Assembly (NCBI GenBank): GCA_031278655.1
Contig: JAITJZ010000010.1
Location: 5,881 to 69,880, forward strand
From: Bifidobacteriaceae bacterium
Lineage (GTDB): Bacteria; Actinomycetota; Actinomycetes; Actinomycetales; WQXJ01
Reading direction: 5' to 3'
Length of the DNA stretch: 64,000 nucleotides
Of this stretch, positions 8,269 to 62,919 are shown piece after piece. The position numbers and the translations under genes are program-made. The notes below the pieces were generated by a model. It worked only from the letters and a program-made list of their open reading frames with translations, was not told the DNA's origin and searched no databases. The stretch's first letter is position 1, and every line of letters begins with the position of its first letter.

Positions 8269-9465
8269 ATGGCTTTGAAAACAATTGACTCGCTCGGCGA
8301 CCTCAAAGGCCGCCGGGTGTTGGTGCGCGCGGACTTGAATGTGCCGCTGGACGGCCAGCGCATCACCGACGACGGCCGCGTCCGGGCCTCCCTCCCGACG
8401 ATCGAACGCCTGTCTGGGGCGGGCGCCAAGGTGGTCGTGATGGCGCACCTGGGGCGGCCCAAGGGCGCGCCGGAGGCGAAGTACTCGTTGCAGCCGGTGG
8501 CTCTCAGGCTGGCCGAGCTGTTGGGCCGCCCGGTCGCCTTCGCCGGCGACACGGTTGGGCCGTTGGCGGCCGAGGCGGTCGCGCGGGCCCAGGACGGCGA
8601 CGTGGTGGCGTTGGAGAACGTCCGCTTCAACGAGGGCGAGACCGCCAAGTCCGATGCCGTCCGCCAGGCTTTCGCCGCCCAGTTGGCCGCGCTCGGGGAC
8701 GCCTTCGTCTCGGACGGTTTCGGCGTGCTCCACCGCAAGCAGGCCTCCGTCTACGACATCGCCCAGTTGTTGCCCGCCGCCGCCGGCGGGCTGGTCCTGG
8801 CCGAGGTCGAGGCCCTGTCCAAGGCCATCGACAACCCCGCCCGTCCCTATGTGGTGGTGCTGGGAGGCTCGAAGGTCTCCGACAAACTCGGCGTCATCGG
8901 AAACCTGCTGACCAAGGCCGACGCCCTGCTGATAGGCGGCGGCATGGTCTACACCTTCCTGGCCGCCAAGGGCTGCCCGGTGGGGGAGTCGCTGCTGGAG
9001 GCGGACCAGATCGACACGGTCAAGGGCTACCTGGAGCGAGCCGGCGCCGAGGGCGTCGACATCGTGCTGCCGACGGACATCGTGGTGGCGGACAAATTCG
9101 ACCGCGACGCCGCCCACTACGACGTGGCGGCCGACCAAATCCCCGATGGCTGGATGGGCCTCGACATCGGCCCCGAGTCGCGCAAGGACTTCGCCGCGCG
9201 CCTGCTCGACGCGGCCACGATCGTCTGGAACGGCCCGATGGGCGTGTTCGAGTTCCCGGTCTTCGCCGGGGGCACCCGGGCGGTGGCCCAGGCCATGATC
9301 GACTCGACGGCCTTCTCGGTGGTCGGCGGCGGCGACAGCGCCGCGGCCGTGCGCATCTTGGGGTTGGACGAGTCCGGCTTCGGCCACATCTCGACCGGCG
9401 GCGGGGCGTCGCTGGAATTGTTGGAGGGCAAAGTGTTGCCCGGCATCGCCGTATTGGAGGGCTGA
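8269..9465 (+). CDS. pgk: Phosphoglycerate kinase
   Basis: Full-length PGK-like sequence ([12 protein letters not shown]..., [23 protein letters not shown]). ATG 8269 preceded by AGGAG/GAGGA. Confidence 0.97.
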
Positions 9466-52309: not shown

Positions 52310-52442
52310 CCGCCGCGCCGGCCCCCACACGGCCAGGCGTGACAAGCCGCGACCGGCGGTGTAACGTCGCAGTCAGTCTGTGTCCGCGCGGCTTGTCGGT
52401 TCGCCCATTACTTGATCCGCAGCACGCTTTCCCCAAAGAGGT

Positions 52443-55400
52443 GTGATGACTGACCCGGTGTATGAGATCGACGGCTCTGCGCGCAGTTACTTCGAGGCTT
52501 TGTCGGAGTTTGACCGGCGTAATCTTGATTCCAGCGCGATCCCGACTTTCAAGGTCAGGGTCACCAATGCCACGGTGTTGAACCTGGTGCATCTGTTTTC
52601 GTGGCTTCAGGACCGGGACGGCGCCAATGCGGTGCAGCAGTGCAGGCTTGAGGTGGTCCTAGATCCTGCCGACCCGGAGCCGTACGCGCTGGCCGCGAGG
52701 GTCGCAGCGCTGCTGGGTTCGGAGGAGTGGATAAGGCGAATCGACAATTGGGACACCGCGGAGCATGCCGGGCGAACACGGCGAATCTTGCCGATGATCT
52801 CGATCAATGAGGATACCTATCAGGCGCTCGCCGATCCGGTCCGGAAATTGATCGGCCAGTCGAACGGATCGGAAGCCTTCAAAATAGTCCCTGAGGCGCC
52901 GCCGAAGAGCGACAAGAAAAACGAATCATTCCCTAGATTCGCCCTGCCCGAAGGGCTAGACAGTTCGGTGGCAGCGGTGATCGAAGTATGTGGACGGCTC
53001 CTGTTCATGATCGGTTCCGGAGATAAAGCCGAATCGAGGAGGAGGGTCGAATACAAGCGAAAAGTGTTGTTGAAACAAGATGAAGTTGGCCGCGAGGTTT
53101 TCCGCAGGACCGCAGATTGGCCTTTGCTGGCCTTCCTGCTCTGGACCGCGTTCGACAAAGCGGTCGATATTGCGGAATGTGATGAGCCGAAGCCGAGCCC
53201 GCTTGAAGGGCGGTGGTTGGAGCGTCTGGCCCAGCTCGAGCCGGACGTCCTTGATATCAGCGACGGATTGCTCCAGTTGGCGGAGAACGTTGTGGTCCAC
53301 GCGGGTCCCGACACATCGGAGGGCCGCGCGAAGGGCCGCGGCGTCCTAGCCCTGCGGGTGCACAGCCGGAAGGGCGAATGGCGAGACGGTCCGCTGGGTG
53401 AGCTTTATCCCAATTACTTCCTCGGACGCGACCGCCGTCGAATGATCAACGCGTGGCGCGAACCCAACTCCGGCGAAGATTGGCTGCGCGACCTGTCCAG
53501 CGACGATCTGCTGGACAGAGAATCACACCACCTGGGAGGGGCCGTCCAGCCCTCCTCGCCCGAGGAGCCCGAGGAGCCCGAATGGTGGCTTCGCAACCGC
53601 GCAGAGAGGGCCAGCCGTGAGAGCCGCCGTGGGCAAGTCCAGCAGTATTTGGAGGTCCGGCTAGCCGATCGCGGCGCCAGTGGGGTGGCGGCGACCTTTC
53701 GGGAACGCACTGAGAACGCCGACCTGAAGTCCATTGGCGACCTCCGCGGCTTTTTCGATCCGACGGCAAAGCAGCGGGAAGATTGGAGAACTTTCTCGGG
53801 CACACCTGTGAACGCCGTGAACCATTACGGCCTGGCATTGTTCGACTCGCTGCTCTCTGGCCTCGACGGGAGCCTTGGGGTGGCGAGCCGATCCCCCGAT
53901 GACGCTTGCGATATGTATTCGAGCAGCGGTGACGATCCTGACCAGGGCGGCGATGGCGCCAGCACGGCGGCATCCCTCGGCACACGCTATTCGCTCTTGA
54001 TACCGCTGCGGATGCGCCTGTCGCAGGCGGCGCCATTGGCCCATCACGCCCACGTCGACCTTCGCCTGCCCGCAGATGAGGAGGCCGAGCCGCTGTGCGT
54101 CGAAACGGTCGGCGCCGCGGACTGGAAGAGCTTTCGAGGCACGCTCGAAGGCTGTTCGCCGTCATCCCCCCAAACCAAGATCGGGCATGTTGAATCAGTG
54201 TCTGGCAGTGCCGTCGGCGCAACAGTCAACTGGGGTGTTGAACCGAGAATCGCGGTGTTTGACGCCAGCACGCTCAGCGGATACCAACTCGAAGTTCTGT
54301 GTAAGGCGATCTTGCTCTGGCTCCGCGGCAGGTCGACGACGCACGTGGCGATTCGTGTGCGGGACGAGCACCAGCTGCGCGTCTTGGTCCGGCTGCTGGT
54401 CGTGTTCTTCGACCGCGACGGTCAGAACGCGGCGCTTGAGGGCAGCCAGCTCTATCTGGTCGGTCCGCAGCCGGGTGACGAGTGGTGGCTCCCTGGCACT
54501 CATCTTGGTGACGCGGTCGCCGCGCAATTGAAGCTCTCCGCGGCACGGTCGGTGGGCGGGACCCTGACATCGCCGCTGACCGATGAGCTGACGCGGATGC
54601 TTGCCAGGCACCCCGGTGCGTCTCGGGCCTCGGCGGCGCCGCAGACGGTTCGCTACGAACCGTTTGACCTGAAGGTCAGCGCAGCCCCGAATTCTCCTGA
54701 GACGCTGTTTGATCGCGTTGCGCGGAAGGTGTTGGAGGCGGACATCCAAGACCCGTCAGGGCCGGGTTGCCGACTCGGGGACACGCACGTCCGGATTGGG
54801 TCGAAAGTGCACCTGGGCACCTTTTACGAGGCAGAGCTCCTATTTGGCAACCACTACTACGTCGATCGGTACGCCTGGCTTGTCCGGCGAGCGCTCAAAT
54901 TTCCGGAGCTCCCAGAAGACGAGGTAGCCGCGGTTGGCCAAGACGATGCCTGTTGCGTCATTGGTTATGAGACCTATTCGGAGATGTTGGTCAGGCGCGT
55001 CATCCAGCCGCGAGAGTTCGCTGACAAGCAGTGGATTTATGGGACTCTGGAGGCGGACGGTGACCGAATGCGGCTGCGCGGATTGGAGGCGATTAGCCGC
55101 GAGCCTTGGAATCCTGAGATGAAGCTTGTCTACCTGGTGCCAATTAGCACTACTATGTCCACCTTTCGCAAGATGGACAACGAAGTTCGGCGATGGTTCG
55201 CACAGACGTGGCCAAATTGTGGGCACGAGTTGCCCAAGCCAATCTGTATCACGGTCATCCATGTTCGTAGTGGCTCCGGCGCACAAGGTTCGAACCTAGA
55301 ACAGGAATTCTTCACCCAGCCCAACTCGGACATGAAATTGGTCAAGCTCCAGGAGCTCATCCAGCTCAAACCCCGGAAACCCCGGAAACCCCGGAAACCC

Positions 55401-55607
55401 CAACCCACAGCGACCTGGGTTCGCTACATCCATCAGGTGCAAGCCACCTGGATGGACCCCTTGGCCTGCTCTTATTGCTTCCCCAATGGGGGTTCTGCGA
55501 TCGAGTTGCCACTGGCCGAGCCGGGCAAGTCCCCGGTTGTGCTGTCGCAACTGTTTGGCCGCAAGCCTCAGCCGCCAAGCGCCCTTCGAGCGGATTCGCC
55601 GCGATGA
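52443..55607 (+). CDS. Island gene A: large cytoplasmic protein with GHKL (Bergerat-fold) ATPase motifs and a degenerate PRTase-like C-terminal module
   Basis: 1054 codons. AAGAGG sits 6 nt before ATG 52446 (GTG 52443 is also possible). N-box-like LLQLAENVVVHAG (aa 276-288), G1-like LADRGASGV (407-415), G2-like NHYGLALFDSL (460-470), closing strand GTRYSLLIPL (513-522). C-terminal CCVIGYETYSEMLV...KLVYLVPISTTMSTFRKM...CSYC. No TM segment. Confidence 0.85.
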   Translation: MMTDPVYEIDGSARSYFEALSEFDRRNLDSSAIPTFKVRVTNATVLNLVHLFSWLQDRDGANAVQQCRLEVVLDPADPEPYALAARVAALLGSEEWIRRIDNWDTAEHAGRTRRILPMISINEDTYQALADPVRKLIGQSNGSEAFKIVPEAPPKSDKKNESFPRFALPEGLDSSVAAVIEVCGRLLFMIGSGDKAESRRRVEYKRKVLLKQDEVGREVFRRTADWPLLAFLLWTAFDKAVDIAECDEPKPSPLEGRWLERLAQLEPDVLDISDGLLQLAENVVVHAGPDTSEGRAKGRGVLALRVHSRKGEWRDGPLGELYPNYFLGRDRRRMINAWREPNSGEDWLRDLSSDDLLDRESHHLGGAVQPSSPEEPEEPEWWLRNRAERASRESRRGQVQQYLEVRLADRGASGVAATFRERTENADLKSIGDLRGFFDPTAKQREDWRTFSGTPVNAVNHYGLALFDSLLSGLDGSLGVASRSPDDACDMYSSSGDDPDQGGDGASTAASLGTRYSLLIPLRMRLSQAAPLAHHAHVDLRLPADEEAEPLCVETVGAADWKSFRGTLEGCSPSSPQTKIGHVESVSGSAVGATVNWGVEPRIAVFDASTLSGYQLEVLCKAILLWLRGRSTTHVAIRVRDEHQLRVLVRLLVVFFDRDGQNAALEGSQLYLVGPQPGDEWWLPGTHLGDAVAAQLKLSAARSVGGTLTSPLTDELTRMLARHPGASRASAAPQTVRYEPFDLKVSAAPNSPETLFDRVARKVLEADIQDPSGPGCRLGDTHVRIGSKVHLGTFYEAELLFGNHYYVDRYAWLVRRALKFPELPEDEVAAVGQDDACCVIGYETYSEMLVRRVIQPREFADKQWIYGTLEADGDRMRLRGLEAISREPWNPEMKLVYLVPISTTMSTFRKMDNEVRRWFAQTWPNCGHELPKPICITVIHVRSGSGAQGSNLEQEFFTQPNSDMKLVKLQELIQLKPRKPRKPRKPQPTATWVRYIHQVQATWMDPLACSYCFPNGGSAIELPLAEPGKSPVVLSQLFGRKPQPPSALRADSPR
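55368..55401 (+). repeat. 9-bp tandem repeat (aaaccccgg x3.8) encoding KPRKPRKPRKP inside gene A
   Basis: Direct reading: aaaccccgg at 55368, 55377 and 55386, plus aaacccc at 55395. The period is a multiple of 3. Confidence 0.9.
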
Positions 55608-58600
55608 GCGCTCCCACCCAAGGCGGGCCGCTGGGCGGCCACCCCAATTGGCTGTTCGGTCTCAAACCGAACGCAACGCCACCAGATCGATGCAATAACG
55701 ATGCGCTGGTACGCGACGCCCTGTCCGACGTGTGCTACGGCCACCTGCGCTTGGGCCAGAACGACTTCGAGTTCGCGCTGAACATGGGCGCCTTTTTCAG
55801 CCACAACGAGCCCCGTGTCAGGGCTTGGCTCTCCCAGATCAGCAGCCCAGATCCGAAGCGGCCGCCAGACGGGCAAGCGTTCAACGTCCTGGTTTCGCCG
55901 CTGACGTCACGAAATGCCGCGTTTGTGGCCGCCGTCAACGAGGAGGTCTTCAAGGGCGCTGCCCAAGTGGTCGGCGTGGATGTCGAGGCCGAGTTCAAGG
56001 ATTCTTTCGCCGTCAGGTACGCCGATTTGCGCGCCCTTCGGAGAGACTTGGAAGGGACCGGGCTGAGGCTCGTCCTACATTACGTCGACGACGCCACCGT
56101 CCGCGGCCTCAGCCTGTTGCGCTTGCGCTCGCTGGTGACAGAGCTGTTCGGCGACCGGCGTCACGGCGGCGGCGAAGATTCCCAGAGGGCTGGGGCGCAG
56201 GTGTTTCATTCGGTGTTCGTGCTGGTGGACCGTTGGTCGCCGAACACCTGGAGGAATCTGCTCCAAGACTTCGATCCCCTGGTGCACAGCTACCTCGACA
56301 TCTGGGCGCCCCATCTCAACACGTTTACCAGCGTCTGTCCCGTGTGCCAGGTCAACGATCACCTGCACAAGGCCGAGGACGGCTGTGCAACGGCCCTGCT
56401 GGCGGGGGAAATCCGCTCTCTGCGGATGCGCGAGACGGAGCCGATCCGCTTTGACCGACTGATCGCGCATCAAGCCGAGCCCGCACAGGACCGCGGCGCC
56501 GCGAAGCCCAGGCTCATCCGTTGCTCGAATGGGCAACCTATGCCGGAGCCGGTCCCGGATAGCTGGAAGGGAAGACAAGAGGTCGGCCGTCGCCGCCTGT
56601 GGTGGCGACACCTGCTCACCTACGGGCTGAGACATCTCGGCAGCGAGCCGTTCGTGTCCGGCTCGGACCAGAGCGGCGGTGAGGTTTGGGAGAAGGACCT
56701 GATCAATTGCCCGTCGATCGTCGCCGCCTATCTGATCACAAAGCTGGACCAGATCGCTCGCGGTCGGCCGAGCGAAGTCCCGGGGACACCTGCGGAGCTT
56801 CCCGTCGATCATTTCGCGGCCGCAATCTGGGCCGCCACCACTGGCGAATTGGCGGACCGAAAGTCGGTCCGAGAGGCCGCGTTGGCCGTTGTCAACGGGC
56901 TGATCTTGACCCTGCTAAAGCCTCCGAGAGGTAATGGCGACTGGGCGGCGCCCCCGGCGCCGGGATGGACGGAGGAGCCAGTCCTGGCACAGGTCCAATC
57001 AGCCCGTGAGCAGATGCAGAACCGATGGGCACGCCTGGTCAAGGCACTGGATGGCTTGGCCAAGCAAAAAGAATTCGACCGTTCAATGAGCGACACAACG
57101 GCGTGGGAGAGCCTGCTGCGCTGCCTGATGCGAGCCACTTCAGAATTGGGCGGCACATTGCTGCTTCGTCGGGACACGATGATCCGGGTCTTCGCTTGCG
57201 GAGCCAGCCGCGGCGTGAATCTCCAGCGGCTGATGACCTACTACGTCTACTGCCTGAAGCTGCTGACAAGTCGCGGCCCGGATCGCGCCAAGTCGGCGTT
57301 TCTCGACTACCTGCTGCTCTCAGGGAGCGAAGTCCAGGGCAAGCCGACGAGTTTGCCGTCGCCGCAGGTCCCCTCCAGGACGGTTGGTCAACAGTTTGTC
57401 GATGCTCCGAGCAACAGGTTGGCTATTCCGGATGACATCAAGGCGCGGCTTGCCGAATTCGTGGACTTGGCCTACATCGAGAACACGAAGTGCCTGGAGG
57501 CAGTCATCGATGACATGGGGCCGCTCAGCGCTGGCCAGCCGTCAGAGGCAGATGGGCACGAATACCTGCCGGAGTACTCAGCCGAGTGCCTGACCGGGTG
57601 GCGTTGGCAGGCGGGCTCCGGGCCGGATCTAAACCAGGCGCATGAACTGGCTAGATTGCTCCGGGAGACGGCAGACCTCGTCAGCCCAAACCACCACTCT
57701 GACCCACACAGCGCTTACGACCGGCCGCTTTCCAAGTTGAATGAGCTGTGGGCGTTCTGCCTGGGAAAAGAGTCCGCCAAGTGCGAGGCGCTGCTCGCCC
57801 TGGAGACCCCCGAAGACACGCTCGCGCTGTCCAGCCTGGAGACGGCGCCGATCAGTGCCGGGAGTGCTCAGCCCGCATTCGTCTTGCCGTCATCCGCTTA
57901 CACACAATATGAAGTTGAGCTTGAAGAGAAACCTCGGCATGTCACTTTGGGCCAGTCTGGCGTGGCCCATGAGGTCTGCGCGGTTCAACAATTGGCGCAA
58001 GAAGCCAAAGTCTTCGAGGCAACGTGGCAGGGGACGATTTCCAGTGGGGGCCCTGTTGTTGGCCTGGGGCGGCAGCCCGTTGACGCGGGCGCCGGCACCC
58101 GTCCTTCGATTGTCTTCGGTTTGTCGGCGGCGCAGGAGTCGCAATACCCCGAGGCATACTGCCTGATCAGGCTCGGTTTGACTCCTGACCGCGGCGGCTC
58201 CACGGAGGCAACTCTATTTCTGCACGCGGGGCTCGAGAATGATGAAAAGGTGGACGCGGCCAAGCTGATGAACGCCGTCAGGATCGTGGCCATATTTAGA
58301 GGCAGAATGCTGGACAGACTCCGCTCCGAACAGCGGCGCGGTGTCCTTGACTCTGTCATCACAGGAAAGCTGATCGAGCAGGCTTACGTAAAACAGGGCG
58401 CTCTGGATCACGGTCAGCCGTCTGACAACATCGGGCAGACAACGGGCCTAGCCAAGTACATTGAAGAAGACACAAAGTTCGGTCTTGGCGGGGACGGCCC
58501 CGGCGGCCGGAAGGCCTACGCGCAGGCGCTGAGTGGATACGTCAACTCAGGCATAGCTCAACTCAACCGAGCTGTGGTCATCTATCGGTCGAGGTCCTCA

Positions 58601-59281
58601 ACCACGAGCCCGCAATCCGGTTCGCTCTCCGGTCTGCTCGAGTCGCTCGGGCCAAAGTTTGCCGCCGCCCTGCCGCCCCGCGCCGACCATACACTGACGA
58701 GGATCCTGAGCGCCTGTCGGTCCCTGCCGGGACTCCAGGATCAATCCAAACTGTGGTTGGGTCGTCCCCTCACGAAGGAGCGGCAGGAGGCCGTGGAAGC
58801 GGACGGGGACAGGGTCACGTCATGGATCAACAAGGTGTCAGGAGAGTTCTCGCTTCGGCAAGTCCCCAACTCCGATGGCGATCTGAAGTTGGTTCTCACC
58901 GACCTGGTCCACGTCACCGTCGTGGCCAGCCTGGTTGACAGCGCCGCCCGCCACGGCGCCGGACCGATTCTCGTGGAGGTGGATGAGCACGGATACCTCT
59001 ATGTCACCAACCAAGTCCGCGATGACTTCGACCTTGAATCGATCAGGCGGGGGTTGGCGAGGGACGCCGGCATCTCGCTGCCGGCGGTCGCCGACCTGTT
59101 CTACGAGTCTTCGGGGGATGATAGGAATACCACCGCAGCACATGGACAGCCACGGGGTGTTCGTATAGCATTCGCCGAAGGGCGCCCACCGCCGCCAGTG
59201 AGCTGGCCTGGGAGGCAGCATGACCTGCAAAGTAATAAGTGGCTGAGCGTGGGGGTGCCGCTTTTCCAGCGGTCGACCTGA
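55604..59281 (+). CDS. Island gene B: PRTase-like N-terminal module, long helical body, degenerate histidine-kinase-like ATPase C-terminus
   Basis: 1225 codons from ATG 55604 (ATGA overlap with the gene A stop). PRPP-loop-like LRLVLHYVDDATVRGLSLL (aa 154-172) then CPVC (245-248). C-terminal LVHVTVVASLVDSAARHGAG / ILVEVDEHGYLYVTNQV / AGISLPAVADLF / GVRIAF...WLSVGVPLF follows the N, G1, G2 order of HATPase domains, but the key Asn and Gly residues are replaced. Confidence 0.85.
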   Translation: MSAPTQGGPLGGHPNWLFGLKPNATPPDRCNNDALVRDALSDVCYGHLRLGQNDFEFALNMGAFFSHNEPRVRAWLSQISSPDPKRPPDGQAFNVLVSPLTSRNAAFVAAVNEEVFKGAAQVVGVDVEAEFKDSFAVRYADLRALRRDLEGTGLRLVLHYVDDATVRGLSLLRLRSLVTELFGDRRHGGGEDSQRAGAQVFHSVFVLVDRWSPNTWRNLLQDFDPLVHSYLDIWAPHLNTFTSVCPVCQVNDHLHKAEDGCATALLAGEIRSLRMRETEPIRFDRLIAHQAEPAQDRGAAKPRLIRCSNGQPMPEPVPDSWKGRQEVGRRRLWWRHLLTYGLRHLGSEPFVSGSDQSGGEVWEKDLINCPSIVAAYLITKLDQIARGRPSEVPGTPAELPVDHFAAAIWAATTGELADRKSVREAALAVVNGLILTLLKPPRGNGDWAAPPAPGWTEEPVLAQVQSAREQMQNRWARLVKALDGLAKQKEFDRSMSDTTAWESLLRCLMRATSELGGTLLLRRDTMIRVFACGASRGVNLQRLMTYYVYCLKLLTSRGPDRAKSAFLDYLLLSGSEVQGKPTSLPSPQVPSRTVGQQFVDAPSNRLAIPDDIKARLAEFVDLAYIENTKCLEAVIDDMGPLSAGQPSEADGHEYLPEYSAECLTGWRWQAGSGPDLNQAHELARLLRETADLVSPNHHSDPHSAYDRPLSKLNELWAFCLGKESAKCEALLALETPEDTLALSSLETAPISAGSAQPAFVLPSSAYTQYEVELEEKPRHVTLGQSGVAHEVCAVQQLAQEAKVFEATWQGTISSGGPVVGLGRQPVDAGAGTRPSIVFGLSAAQESQYPEAYCLIRLGLTPDRGGSTEATLFLHAGLENDEKVDAAKLMNAVRIVAIFRGRMLDRLRSEQRRGVLDSVITGKLIEQAYVKQGALDHGQPSDNIGQTTGLAKYIEEDTKFGLGGDGPGGRKAYAQALSGYVNSGIAQLNRAVVIYRSRSSTTSPQSGSLSGLLESLGPKFAAALPPRADHTLTRILSACRSLPGLQDQSKLWLGRPLTKERQEAVEADGDRVTSWINKVSGEFSLRQVPNSDGDLKLVLTDLVHVTVVASLVDSAARHGAGPILVEVDEHGYLYVTNQVRDDFDLESIRRGLARDAGISLPAVADLFYESSGDDRNTTAAHGQPRGVRIAFAEGRPPPPVSWPGRQHDLQSNKWLSVGVPLFQRST

Positions 59282-59321
59282 AAATGAAGAGATTTGTGAT
59301 TTGACAGATTGAGAGAAAACC

Positions 59322-59948
59322 ATGACCGAAAATCAGCCGTCATTCGTTGTAATTGATGACGATCCCGGGCAGGCTGAGCGAATCATGGCCCGGCTGAGCG
59401 ACATTTACCCTGGAGCGACGCCGGTCCGAGTCACTCCCAGCGGCGACACACAATCTCTCGACCGCGGCAACACGATTCCCAGGTCGGATGAGGATGCTCA
59501 GGGCTACGTGCCTGGCAGCACCAACTGGACGCGGTTCATTGAGTCCTTGAACACACTGGCCAGTGGGAATGGCGTCGGTGAGACCTTCGTCATAATCGAC
59601 ATGGTTCTAAATAAGAGCGATCAGAAGGCGTTCACCAATGAACTCAGAACCGGATTCGGCGTCTGGTATCCAAGAGCCGTGGTCGAGATCGTGGCCGCGC
59701 TGTTGAAGGACGGCGCGCAGAATCCTCCATGGATTGTCTTGACAAGTGCCTACCTCGGGTTTCACCCGCGTAACCTCGCTGATCGGCTCCGTGCGCTGAA
59801 GCCCCCTCCCGGCGGTGGAGATGATCAGATCTGCTGGATGCCTTTAGTCATGTTCACGCAGGCGAGCTGGTACTCTGACGCAGAGGTTAAGATGCACCTC
59901 CAGGGCCATCTTGGCCGCGTGTTTCAACCCGACCCGGTAAACAGTTGA
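59322..59948 (+). CDS. Island gene C: stand-alone CheY-like receiver (REC-like) protein with insertions
   Basis: 208 codons. SFVVIDDDPGQAERIMARL (acidic pocket), ETFVIIDMVL (candidate phospho-acceptor D93), PWIVLTSAY (T141/S142), LRALKPP (possible conserved K160-P). Confidence 0.75.
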   Translation: MTENQPSFVVIDDDPGQAERIMARLSDIYPGATPVRVTPSGDTQSLDRGNTIPRSDEDAQGYVPGSTNWTRFIESLNTLASGNGVGETFVIIDMVLNKSDQKAFTNELRTGFGVWYPRAVVEIVAALLKDGAQNPPWIVLTSAYLGFHPRNLADRLRALKPPPGGGDDQICWMPLVMFTQASWYSDAEVKMHLQGHLGRVFQPDPVNS

Positions 59949-61258
59949 CCGCCGCCGCAATGGCTGCGAACAGGTCGGCGGGCGCCCAGTTCGCGGATGC
60001 GGCAATGGCTGCGGTCTTGGACAAAGCGTTCAGGCCGGCCGTGCCGAGGCTCTTCCACTACACCACGCTCGACACCATGTGGAAGATCCTTGAGGGTCAG
60101 GAGCTGTGGGCCACGCACGCGCGATTCTCGAACGACGCTCAAGAAGTCGAGTTGGGCAAGAAGTTGTTGCTCGGCGGCACGAAAACCGATTCCGTGGATG
60201 AGCTGTTCAACCCGTTCGTGGTCTGCCTGTGCGAGAACGGTGACCTCCTCAGCCAGTGGCGGGCGTACGCGCGTGATGGCGTGGCGATCGAGTTGGCGTT
60301 CCCGCCGAGTTCAACAGTCAGAATTATCAAGGATCAGGATCAGGATCAGAAGGTCACCGGAGAGATCGACGGTCTGAGGCCGTACAGAGTGTTCTACGGC
60401 GATGCGGCAGTGTTGAACGATTCCGATCAGACGCACATCGCCGACAGCCAGATTGTGATTTCGTCGGCCGCGGTGACAGGGGACGGCGGGAGCGTCATCA
60501 AGGTAAGTGAACTCGGCGAAAGAGTCAGGAGTGCGGCTGAGACCGGCGGACTCTCAGAGGACGATTTGCTCAAAGCGCTGCTTCCGTACGTCAAGAGCAG
60601 CGGTTTCAAAGAAGAGAGCGAGTGGCGATTGGTCGTCGACCTGTCCCTCCCGGACTTCGCAAGGTTTCGCCAGGCGATCGGCTACCAGGACAACCCAAAT
60701 TTGCCGTCAACGAGGCGACCCTATTTGCGGTTGAAGTATGGGGCCGCCGGGTCCGGCGCCGATGGCGTCACAGTCGATGTCCCGCAGAAGGTCAGTCGTG
60801 CCTGGTCAGACTTTCAGCGTAAGACAGGCACGACGAAAGCGACTGGGCTCAAGAAGGAAGTGCTGCGCGAGTTGGGGAAACTGGGACCGCCGGTCAAGTT
60901 TCGGACACCTCCCGGCTATGGGCGACGCTCGGGCGACGAGACCTATGACATCTCGATCATCACGGAAAACGCCAAAGACGCGGAGGCGGTGTTCGAAGCT
61001 GTTGGGGCGGCGCTGTTGCCGCTCACCAGCGAGAGCCTGGGCGGCGAGGCCACCGACCCGGCGCTTGGCAACAAGGTCAACGTCTGGTGGGGCAACGTCT
61101 GGCCCATCCGTTCGATCCGAGTCGGACCGCACCCGAGGATCGACGAGGTGAAAGAGGCGATCACGCACTATTGCTCGACTCAGTGGTGGATTCGGCAGGT
61201 CAAGGTCGTCGGATCGAGCATTCCGTACCGTCCGCCGCGCAGGCAGGCCGGAGAGTGA
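59945..61258 (+). CDS. Island gene D: DUF2971-like protein
   Basis: 437 codons. TTG 59945 overlaps the gene C stop (TTGA); an ATG alternative lies at 59960. RLFHYTTLDTMWKILEGQELWATHARFSNDAQE, FVVCLCENGDLLSQWRAYARDGVAIELAF and KSSGFKEESEWRLVV follow the DUF2971 motif order. Confidence 0.8.
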   Translation: MTAAAMAANRSAGAQFADAAMAAVLDKAFRPAVPRLFHYTTLDTMWKILEGQELWATHARFSNDAQEVELGKKLLLGGTKTDSVDELFNPFVVCLCENGDLLSQWRAYARDGVAIELAFPPSSTVRIIKDQDQDQKVTGEIDGLRPYRVFYGDAAVLNDSDQTHIADSQIVISSAAVTGDGGSVIKVSELGERVRSAAETGGLSEDDLLKALLPYVKSSGFKEESEWRLVVDLSLPDFARFRQAIGYQDNPNLPSTRRPYLRLKYGAAGSGADGVTVDVPQKVSRAWSDFQRKTGTTKATGLKKEVLRELGKLGPPVKFRTPPGYGRRSGDETYDISIITENAKDAEAVFEAVGAALLPLTSESLGGEATDPALGNKVNVWWGNVWPIRSIRVGPHPRIDEVKEAITHYCSTQWWIRQVKVVGSSIPYRPPRRQAGE

Positions 61259-61446
61259 CGCGCTCCAACCGAGTCGTTGGGCGGCCCGCCCCGGCGCCGG
61301 GGACGCGGCGATGGTCACAGTTTGATTGCGCCAGCGCGTGACGCTGGCGCGGGGTGGTAAACTCGCCGAGCCGTCTTCGTGGCCTCGCGGCCGCTCGGGC
61401 GGCGTGTCCTGTCCGTTTCTATAACCAAAGACGAGTCTTACATTCT

Positions 61447-62919
61447 ATGACAACATCCCTACCCGCAGCAGTCTCTGAGGCCCCGGTGCCCGAAGTCGCC
61501 GTCAACGACATCGGCACAAGCGAAGACCTGCTGGCCGCCATCGACGGCACGATCAAGTACTTCAACGATGGCGACATCGTTGAGGGAACTGTGGTCAAAG
61601 TCGACCGCGACGAGGTCCTCCTCGACATCGGCTACAAGACGGAAGGCGTTATCCCGTCGCGTGAGCTGTCCATCAAACACGACATCGATCCCTCGCAGAT
61701 CGTCTCCGTCGGCGACAAGGTCGAAGCCCTCGTCCTCCAGAAGGAGGACAAAGAAGGCCGTCTGATCCTGTCGAAGAAGCGGGCTCAATACGAGCGCGCC
61801 TGGGGCGCGATCGAGAAGATCAAAGAAGCCGACGGCATTGTCACCGGCACCGTCATCGAAGTCGTCAAGGGCGGCTTGATCGTTGACATCGGGCTGCGCG
61901 GGTTCCTGCCGGCCTCGCTGGTGGAGATGCGGCGCGTGCGCGACCTGCAGCCCTATGTGGGTCAAGAGCTGGACGCCAAGATCATCGAACTCGACAAGTC
62001 GCGCAACAACGTGGTCCTGTCGCGCCGCTCCTGGCTCGAACAGACTCAGTCCGAGGTCCGCTCGACCTTCTTGTCCCAGCTCAAAGAGGGCCAAGTGCGC
62101 ACGGGCGTTGTCTCATCGATCGTCAACTTCGGGGCCTTCGTGGACCTGGGCGGGGTCGACGGACTGGTCCACGTCTCCGAGCTGTCCTGGAAGCACATCG
62201 ACTACCCGAACGAGGTTGTGCACGTCGGCCAGGAGGTCACTGTCGAGGTCCTGTCGGTCGAGCTCGACCGCGAGCGGGTCTCGCTGTCCCTCAAGGCCAC
62301 CCAGGAAGACCCGTGGCAGTTGTTCGCGCGCACCCACGCCATCGGCCAGGTGGTGCCCGGCAAGGTCACCAAACTGGTGCCCTTCGGCGCCTTCGTGTCC
62401 GTCGAGGACGGGATCGAGGGCCTGGTGCACATCTCCGAGTTGGCGGTGCGCCACGTCGAGCAGCCTGAGCAGGTCGTCAAGGTCGGTGAGACGGTCTTCG
62501 TCAAGGTCATCGACGTGGACCTGGACCGCCGCCGCATCTCGTTGTCCCTCAAGCAGGCCAACGAGGGCGTGGACCCGGAGGGCGACGATTCGACCTTCGA
62601 CCCGGCGCTCTACGGCATGGCCGCCGAGTACGACGACGACGGCAACTACAAGTACCCCGAGGGCTTCGACCCGGAGACGAACGAGTGGATGGAGGGCTTC
62701 GAGGCCCAGCGCCAAGCCTGGGAGGAAGCCTACGCCGACGCCTTGGCGCGCTGGCAGGCGCACAAGGCCCAGGTTTCGACCGCCCGCGCGGCCGACCAGC
62801 ACGCGGCCGTCGAAGACGGCACGGCCACGGACTACCGCTCCGAGTTGTCGCAGACCGAGGGCACCTTGGCCTCGGACGAGGCGTTGGCCGCCCTGCGGGA
62901 GAAGCTGACCAGCAACTGA
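61447..62919 (+). CDS. rpsA: 30S ribosomal protein S1
   Basis: Four S1 repeats (GDIVEGTVVKVD..., GTVIEVVKGGLIVDIG, GVVSSIVNFGAFVDLG, GKVTKLVPFGAFVSV) and an acidic C-terminus. ATG at 61447. Confidence 0.95.
   Translation: MTTSLPAAVSEAPVPEVAVNDIGTSEDLLAAIDGTIKYFNDGDIVEGTVVKVDRDEVLLDIGYKTEGVIPSRELSIKHDIDPSQIVSVGDKVEALVLQKEDKEGRLILSKKRAQYERAWGAIEKIKEADGIVTGTVIEVVKGGLIVDIGLRGFLPASLVEMRRVRDLQPYVGQELDAKIIELDKSRNNVVLSRRSWLEQTQSEVRSTFLSQLKEGQVRTGVVSSIVNFGAFVDLGGVDGLVHVSELSWKHIDYPNEVVHVGQEVTVEVLSVELDRERVSLSLKATQEDPWQLFARTHAIGQVVPGKVTKLVPFGAFVSVEDGIEGLVHISELAVRHVEQPEQVVKVGETVFVKVIDVDLDRRRISLSLKQANEGVDPEGDDSTFDPALYGMAAEYDDDGNYKYPEGFDPETNEWMEGFEAQRQAWEEAYADALARWQAHKAQVSTARAADQHAAVEDGTATDYRSELSQTEGTLASDEALAALREKLTSN

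Follow-up and report, generated by a model that had tools for sequence, protein, structure and literature searches.

Gene C, a predicted Rossmann-like α/β protein encoded upstream of a DUF2971 gene in Bifidobacteriaceae: a candidate metal-dependent switch or adaptor

Gene C is located at positions 59322..59948 of the forward strand within the window, the whole stretch of DNA analysed here, which comprises 64,000 nucleotides of contig JAITJZ010000010.1 from a bacterium of the Bifidobacteriaceae. It is the third of four genes, A, B, C, and D, that lie together on an island of low GC (guanine plus cytosine) content, and D encodes a member of the DUF2971 family. Tentatively, we favor the reading that C represents a new family of Rossmann-like α/β proteins and serves as a metal-dependent switch or adaptor, which would either restrain D or couple D to A and B within a candidate abortive-infection or conflict cassette. 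What has been established is that gene C is real, that its product has an α/β pattern with conserved pocket residues, that the linkage of C to D and of the four genes to one another is strictly conserved, that D belongs to DUF2971, and that the island is foreign in composition.

C is a conserved protein-coding gene rather than a chance open reading frame (ORF) of a GC-rich genome. The ORF runs from an ATG to a TGA contained in the sequence TTGA, and its 208-residue product (P0001) is identical to LBD77_00850, a "hypothetical protein" annotated by NCBI in a metagenome-assembled genome (MAG) of the Bifidobacteriaceae. When 1.84 billion representative proteins were searched exhaustively with phmmer, two true homologues were found, P0002 (206 residues, 39% identity, E=1.3e-29) and P0003 (214 residues, 32% identity, E=2e-20); a further match, the 649-residue P0004, was discarded as spurious, being a repetitive protein. 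Word-indexed searches with the C sequence and with a family profile returned the same three proteins and no others. Because the exhaustive and the word-indexed searches yield just three members, all of them from Bifidobacteriaceae MAGs, the family is extremely rare; it is restricted to this lineage and constitutes a new orphan family without database annotation. Searches of Pfam, NCBIfam, PADLOC, and PHROGs yielded neither a significant match to C nor a second domain; the few library matches listed for C, A, or B have E values of 0.033-0.34, far below the curated cut-offs where one exists. This agrees with the first-pass annotation, which had described the ORF as encoding a protein that lacks an output domain: C is a single-domain α/β protein, and no library match points to a further domain.

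The fold of C has been predicted. AlphaFold gave a poor model from the single sequence (predicted local distance difference test score, pLDDT, of 46), and a better one when supplied with the three-sequence family alignment (pLDDT 62; predicted template modelling score, pTM, 0.66). In the latter, the block-mean pLDDT is ~57-88 over residues 1-140 and ~67-88 up to residue 100, and the model can be relied on from residue 4 to residue 142. The model contains β strands at residues 7-12, 35-37, 43-45, 88-93, 137-142, and 176-178, and α helices at residues 15-28, 56-60, 67-81, 98-108, 118-127, 152-157, and 186-195, an arrangement that suggests a three-layer α/β, Rossmann-like fold. When the model was compared with known structures by Foldseek, the match classes that could be recognized were all three-layer α/β: von Willebrand factor A (vWA) domains, receivers, flavodoxins, DhaM, and phosphoribosyltransferases.

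Four residues of C, D12, D13, D93, and S142, are invariant in the three-sequence alignment, and in the model all of them are placed at the C-terminal ends of strands. The codons for D12 and D13, together with that for D14 (D/D/S in the family), occupy 59355..59363 at the end of predicted strand 7-12. The codon for D93, a candidate phospho-acceptor or metal ligand and the last residue of predicted strand 88-93, is at 59598..59600, and an invariant motif, S142-x-Y144-x-G146-F147 (59745..59762), is found at and just after the end of predicted strand 137-142. Further invariant residues are D100, E107, R109, R118, K129, Y144, G146, F147, R155, W172, and P174. Acidic residues at the C-terminal ends of strands are common to many Rossmann-like active sites.

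From these features a mechanism can be proposed. D12, D13, D93, and S142, with D100 and E107 nearby, would cluster at the C-terminal edge of a parallel sheet. It is at this edge that receivers hold Mg2+ and the phospho-acceptor Asp, and that vWA domains hold the metal of the MIDAS (metal-ion-dependent adhesion site) and bind an acidic side chain of a ligand. The pocket of C probably binds a metal as well. C would then contact D, holding this presumably toxic ADP-ribosyltransferase in check, or, alternatively, would couple D to a sensor machinery composed of A and B, and the four genes together would form a horizontally mobile cassette with a role in defence. A switch or adaptor function is proposed because C, which carries no domain for output, always occurs together with D and B.

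Several findings weigh against this reading. Residues 143-185 and 195-208 of the model have pLDDT values below 50, so that the last third is weak. Foldseek gave no significant match to the model, with best E values of 0.048 in the PDB and 0.017 in the viral library BFVD, and the template modelling (TM) scores were only 0.2-0.35; beyond "α/β", no statistically significant match to a family or a structure backs the fold. Since residue conservation within C rests on three sequences, it is weak evidence for any single residue. No protein in which C is fused to D was present among the 1.84 billion representative proteins searched exhaustively with phmmer. Finally, no PADLOC model matches the four window proteins or their full-length homologues (the sole match listed, to Cyclase with a non-significant E=0.033, involves the B fragment P0006), and consequently the defence role is inferred only from the family of D and from the island-like context.

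The first-pass annotation had gone further and read C as an orphan CheY-like receiver, in which an acidic cluster (D12-D14), an acceptor (D93), a Thr/Ser (T141/S142), and a Lys-Pro (K160-P161) follow one another in the canonical order, interrupted by two insertions. That C is a true, though highly divergent, receiver, phosphorylated at D93 by a kinase activity of A or B or by acetyl phosphate, and thereby gating or buffering D, now appears rather unlikely. Part of the proposed landmark series is borne out: D12, D13, D93, and S142 are conserved, in the right order, and at predicted strand ends. The other landmarks vary, position 14 being D/D/S, position 141 T/T/L, and the residue after S142 A/G/S. 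The pair K160-P161 (59799..59804) is K-P in one member of the family, T-A in another, and K-E in the third, and the pLDDT around it falls below 50, so that its assignment as the receiver Lys-Pro has to be given up. The position that a colinear alignment pairs with K109-P110 of CheY is instead M/I/L173 followed by the invariant P174, within the segment W172-M173-P174 (59835..59843; W and P invariant, the middle residue M/I/L) that corresponds to CheY V-K109-P110. Thus, the essential Lys of receivers is absent from C.

Profile searches do not recognize a receiver in C. HMMER found no match to Pfam Response_reg (PF00072) at E≤1 for P0001, P0002, or P0003, so that the receiver reading fails the first check which the first-pass annotation had itself proposed, and a hidden Markov model (HMM) of receivers built for this work scored members of the C family at 6 bits at most, no better than HPRT. 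The PDB contains many receivers; a PDB profile search with C at E≤10 nevertheless returned none, its only matches being to designed ankyrin repeat proteins (DARPins) and individually non-significant. The DARPin match covers residues 67-135 and has a whole-sequence E=3e-5. An ankyrin identity for C was rejected, as that score is summed over repeats (the per-domain E is ~0.4 or higher, 0.39-2.9 in the three matches shown) and the alignment places a predicted β strand of C on an ankyrin helix. Consensus-designed repeat proteins are prone to draw matches of this kind.

A resemblance to receivers does emerge when profiles are compared with hhalign, using a receiver profile of 17 sequences, each verified as Response_reg by Pfam. 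With the untrimmed C profile, the match has a probability of 7% and is not colinear, pairing residues 18-82 of C with the C-terminal half of the receiver; a 5-sequence receiver profile is likewise aligned out of register. When the supposed insertions (residues 39-65 and 109-128, amounting to ~45 extra residues) and the tail were removed post hoc, the alignment became colinear from strand 1 to strand 4, with a probability of 50% and a score of 29.7. It then pairs D12/D13 with CheY D12/D13, D93 with D57, D100 with D64, and S142-A143 with T87-A88, an equivalence that, for D12, D13, and D93, is confined to trimmed or relaxed-gap alignments. The two insertions described in the first-pass annotation accordingly exist only relative to a receiver alignment that is itself obtained by removing them. 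The likeness is also visible in P0003, whose first strand and helix read FLVVDDSFAQASLIMRRL, compared with FLVVDDFSTMRRIVRNLL in CheY.

Controls give this resemblance some weight and also show its limits. Against the same receiver profile, 34 windows taken from the family alignments of A, B, and D scored 17.6 at most. When the five βα units of C were permuted, the native order ranked first (1/120), yet its score is only ~2.6 standard deviations above the mean. When 81 pairs of deletions were tried as a grid, the probability stayed at or below 11% for each of five unrelated α/β proteins, whereas the window protein C, taken alone, reached 82%; however, P0002 and P0003 reached only 10% and 5.5% on that grid. 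Relaxed gap penalties also produced colinear alignments, with inflated probabilities. They were set aside as evidence for a receiver, because single sequences of the C family scored 35-41 under these settings and an ABC ATPase 43, adenylate kinase 34, and Ras 33, so that the procedure does not discriminate. Taken together, there is a suggestive, in-register resemblance to receivers over strand 1/helix 1 and strands 3-4, which appears after post-hoc trimming and is uneven across the family. The receiver resemblance of C is not statistically established. More generally, "landmarks" read by eye do not suffice to identify a receiver, since similar scores are obtained with unrelated α/β proteins and with an alternative register.

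As the first-pass annotation had required of an acceptor, D93 does end a predicted strand, 88-93, which is the third main strand, and ~17 of the top 50 Foldseek matches in the PDB are receivers, flavodoxins, or flavodoxin fusions, a count in which some G-protein-coupled receptor entries are taken by us to be flavodoxin fusions. However, receivers and flavodoxins are found only from rank 17 on, with TM-scores of ~0.3 and root-mean-square deviations (rmsd) of 9-11 Å; none is a significant match, and vWA domains rank higher. A receiver would moreover need partners. A carries motifs like those of GHKL ATPases (discussed later), and Detocs offers a precedent for a receiver that acts as a buffer, but neither a HisKA nor an Hpt domain was found in A or B by Pfam, and D has no receiver domain that could accept a signal. 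Phosphorylation of C is doubtful, given that the family has no conserved Lys and the cassette no recognizable histidine kinase. As an HMM match and the Lys, two defining features of the family, are both missing, C is not assignable to Response_reg, although it may still work like one.

Alternatively, though we consider it unlikely, C could be vWA-like, its MIDAS being degenerate (D12-x-[D/S]14 ... D93), and could function as a metal-dependent adaptor between the large ATPase-like A and B proteins and D. The top ranks of the Foldseek lists are held by DhaM and by vWA domains (Rpn10, PilB, NorD, and phage vWA proteins), the latter at ranks 2, 3, 4, and 10 in the PDB and 3, 4, 6, 8, 9, and 10 in the viral library. 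They also give the best superpositions of C, with rmsd values of 5.3-6.1 Å, TMq up to 0.35, and a probability of 0.60. The predicted order of elements, β-α-β-β(hairpin)-α-α-β-α-α-β-α-β-α over ~200 residues, would presumably fit the vWA layout, as in integrin I-domains, without insertions. Against this, the Foldseek matches are non-significant (E values of 0.017-0.1), hhalign assigns a probability of 0.1% to the alignment of C with a verified vWA profile, and no member of the C family matches a Pfam vWA family (PF00092 / PF13519). In addition, part of the DxSxS motif is missing and no MIDAS Thr can be identified, leaving only D12, [D/S]14, and D93 as compatible residues.

Downstream of C lies gene D (60005..61258, forward strand, counted from the start that its homologues support). 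D belongs to DUF2971. It scores 24.4 bits against the Pfam family DUF2971 (PF11185), whose gathering cut-off is 22, and its homologues in the related loci L003 and L001 score 23.6 and 19.6 bits. D also matches PHROG 1762 (E=1.4e-10), and tblastn aligns it with annotated DUF2971 genes on plasmids; A, B, and C gave no matches to plasmids by tblastn. Residues invariant among the D homologues include H38-Y39-T40, Y108, and E224-x-E226. DUF2971 proteins have been described as ADP-ribosyltransferases of the HYE clade whose nearest relatives are DarT and AbiGi and which share a conserved Tyr plus an ExE motif (PMC12522546), and D is accordingly predicted to be a DarT-like ADP-ribosyltransferase. One single-gene DUF2971 protein, Aristaios, has been demonstrated experimentally to provide phage defence by abortive infection (PMC11381338). 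The last ~190 residues of D (residues ~250-437; 61000-61258) form a conserved C-terminal region with the motifs WPIRSIRVGPHPR and HYCSTHWW. This region lies outside the plasmid DUF2971 alignment (which extends to ~270 of the 437-residue ORF) as well as the Pfam and PHROG matches, and nothing in any library searched matched it.

The position of C next to the DUF2971 gene, recorded in the first-pass annotation, is a conserved feature: in all three loci, C is directly upstream of the D homologue, and B is upstream of C. L001 and L002 contain the end of B, then C, then D, while L006, from the same sample as L001, contains a B fragment; L003, the only locus long enough, also has A. The L003 homologues of the four genes are 36-40% identical to those of the window (31% for C).

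A translational link between C and D through the TTGA overlap had also been proposed, and here the evidence is mixed. The overlap is present in the window sequence, where the corresponding TTG (59945) is an alternative start of D, but the alignment of the D homologues begins at the ATG at 60005 (M21 of the long ORF), and the Logan gene call starts D at the ATG at 59960. Measured to the conserved start, the distance from C to D is 54-68 nucleotides in all three loci. In L001 the stop codon of C is in the frame of D, making an overlap impossible; in L003, an ATGA overlap is possible. Thus, the adjacency of C and D is conserved and the overlap is not, and the case for translational coupling through TTGA is weak. 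A 27-nucleotide direct repeat (59942-59968 and 59987-60013, 78% identity, 45 nucleotides apart) duplicates the context of the D start, GCAATGGCTGCG; the start of D is ambiguous because this repeat yields two in-frame ATGs (59960 and 60005).

The other two genes encode large proteins without a family match. A (52443..55607, forward strand) encodes 1054 residues, and B (55604..59281, forward strand), whose product P0005 is annotated by NCBI, encodes 1225. The start of B, which is the NCBI-annotated one, overlaps the stop of A (ATGA). Neither protein has a match in Pfam, NCBIfam, PADLOC, or PHROGs, and hhalign detected no homology between them. Likewise, hhalign detected no relation of C to A, B, or D, and thus no sign of internal paralogy. 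Four motifs of A that are conserved between the window and L003, LAENVVVHAG (277-288), DRGxxG (409-414), NHYGL (460-464), and GTxYSLLIPL (513-522), resemble by eye the N, G1, G2, and G3 boxes of GHKL ATPases (histidine-kinase/MORC-type). The best local hhalign match of A to a real histidine kinase does fall on the putative N-box, with a probability of only 0.2%. In the PDB profile search, the C-terminus of B is weakly similar to the ATP-binding domain of the DevS histidine kinase (E=0.07), but B has another residue in place of the N-box Asn. No Pfam match to HisKA, Hpt, or HATPase_c was found in A or B, and no conserved His was found upstream of the putative N-box of A.

Other features of A and B can be noted. 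At residues ~156-170 B has a sequence that, from a reading of the motif only, resembles a phosphoribosyl pyrophosphate loop, LVxHYVDDAxVRG, and this is followed by CPxCxxND at ~245-255. In A, LVYLVPxSxTxxTFRK at ~895-910 is followed by CxxCFP at ~1009-1012. These motifs hint that each protein may carry a degenerate phosphoribosyltransferase-like module and a zinc knuckle. A also contains a perfect 9-nucleotide tandem repeat at 55368-55401 (AAACCCCGG, 3.8 copies), which encodes KPRKPRKPRKP and is absent from the L003 homologue.

If A and B form a non-canonical sensor pair of the GHKL type, the cassette could operate by a Detocs-like logic built from unrelated parts, in which the pair signals through C, either as a Lys-less CheY-like protein or as a MIDAS-like one, and so unleashes D. 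As a description of the whole system, we judge this quite improbable.

It is highly doubtful that C acts only as the antitoxin or immunity protein cognate to D, or as an enzyme that reverses or pre-empts the modification made by D, with no signalling and with A and B as unrelated cargo. In favor of this reading, every locus does have a small gene directly upstream of the gene from a toxin family, DUF2971 has DarT among its relatives, DarT being checked by a neighboring antitoxin (PMC12522546), and a conserved acidic pocket could equally be the active site of a hydrolase. Against it, A and B, themselves translationally overlapped, co-occur with C and D wherever the sequence extends far enough, C is unlike macrodomains, ARH, and NADAR proteins in sequence and fold searches, and Aristaios functions from one gene, with no antitoxin (PMC11381338). 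Two specific versions of this idea were also discarded. The motif TSxYxGF had suggested a macrodomain or an antitoxin by eye, but no macrodomain was found in the PDB profile or fold searches, and a DNA mimic is unlikely, as the isoelectric points of the C family (4.9-7.1) are not strongly acidic.

The four genes are contained in an island (52310..61353, defined from composition and ORFs) with a GC content of ~0.56-0.65 (about 0.60), compared with ~0.68-0.74 (about 0.70) upstream. Its flanks carry a 324-residue ORF that we take to encode a DeoR-type regulator and a 521-residue ORF that we take to be rpsA, the gene for ribosomal protein S1; the island is directly upstream of the ORFs read by us as rpsA (61354-62919) and coaE. 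The surroundings of the cassette differ between loci, and in L001 an ABC transporter follows D. Given its foreign composition and its different surroundings at each locus, we take the cassette to be mobile. At the island, no flanking att-like direct repeats were found and no integrase was seen, and shuffled controls gave at least as many promoters and terminators. Four scans of genome and metagenome contigs with patterns derived from B recovered only the known L003 contig.

That contig (JAITLE010000030.1, also listed as L004; 9364 base pairs) has an exact 119-base-pair terminal direct repeat, at 1-119 and 9246-9364. The length of this repeat equals the assembler k-mer given in the contig name (k119), and B reads across the junction. 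The L003 cassette, made up of the four genes and a short spacer, may thus be present as a ~9.2-kb circle or in tandem copy. Within the spacer from D to A there is a 75-residue ORF on the reverse strand (2306-2533) that reads MEVDLVLEDAQRRVVGIEVKASATARGEDF... and that by eye resembles a C-terminal fragment of a DUF4143-type ATPase, presumably a gene remnant carried with the cassette.

If C does control D, then the cassette would represent a new, multi-component regulation of a DUF2971 toxin, in contrast to the single-gene Aristaios. It would also illustrate the extent to which a receiver-like or vWA-like switch may change and still retain its acidic pocket. As the three members of the family all come from uncultured Bifidobacteriaceae, any function of C would be new knowledge.

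Among known systems, the nearest functional precedent for the idea of a buffering protein is DtcB of Detocs, a stand-alone receiver whose proposed role is to act as a buffer for stray phosphate coming from DtcA, the kinase (bioRxiv 10.1101/2023.01.24.525353). C resembles DtcB, and the CheY receiver, in being a small single-domain α/β protein, and it lies beside an effector in a putative defence cassette. Like CheY, it has an Asp-Asp after strand 1, an Asp that ends the third main strand, a Ser plus a small residue that end the next strand, and a Pro at the position of CheY P110. Unlike CheY, it has no significant HMM or profile match and no Lys, and its ~45 extra residues had to be cut before the two could be aligned. 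In Detocs, a canonical kinase supplies two canonical receivers, DtcB and DtcC, and the effector is a PNP nucleosidase (bioRxiv 10.1101/2023.01.24.525353). In contrast, the A-B-C-D cassette has no detectable kinase with a phospho-acceptor His and no canonical receiver, and D is an ADP-ribosyltransferase, as predicted from its family, that lacks a receiver domain. PADLOC, Pfam, and NCBIfam gave no match to kinase or receiver models for any of the four proteins, although it is uncertain whether PADLOC 2.0.0 includes Detocs models.

With vWA domains such as those of NorD, Rpn10, and phage vWA proteins, C shares a length of ~200 residues, a hairpin after the first helix, and, as in the MIDAS, acidic residues that end the first and the fourth strand; these domains are its best-ranked, though non-significant, structural neighbors. 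C differs from them in having no sequence or profile similarity (0.1%), an incomplete DxSxS motif, and no recognizable MoxR-type AAA+ ATPase as a partner. For D, the closest comparisons are Aristaios, which shares its DUF2971 family, and DarTG, in which a small partner gene likewise adjoins the toxin gene. Unlike Aristaios, however, the cassette is multi-gene, and unlike DarG, which is a macrodomain protein, C is not one. D also differs from both toxins in its extra C-terminal region of ~190 residues and in being accompanied by two proteins of more than 1000 residues each. In these terms, C is at best a known α/β switch fold in strongly diverged form, carried in an undescribed cassette that is built around a known toxin family.

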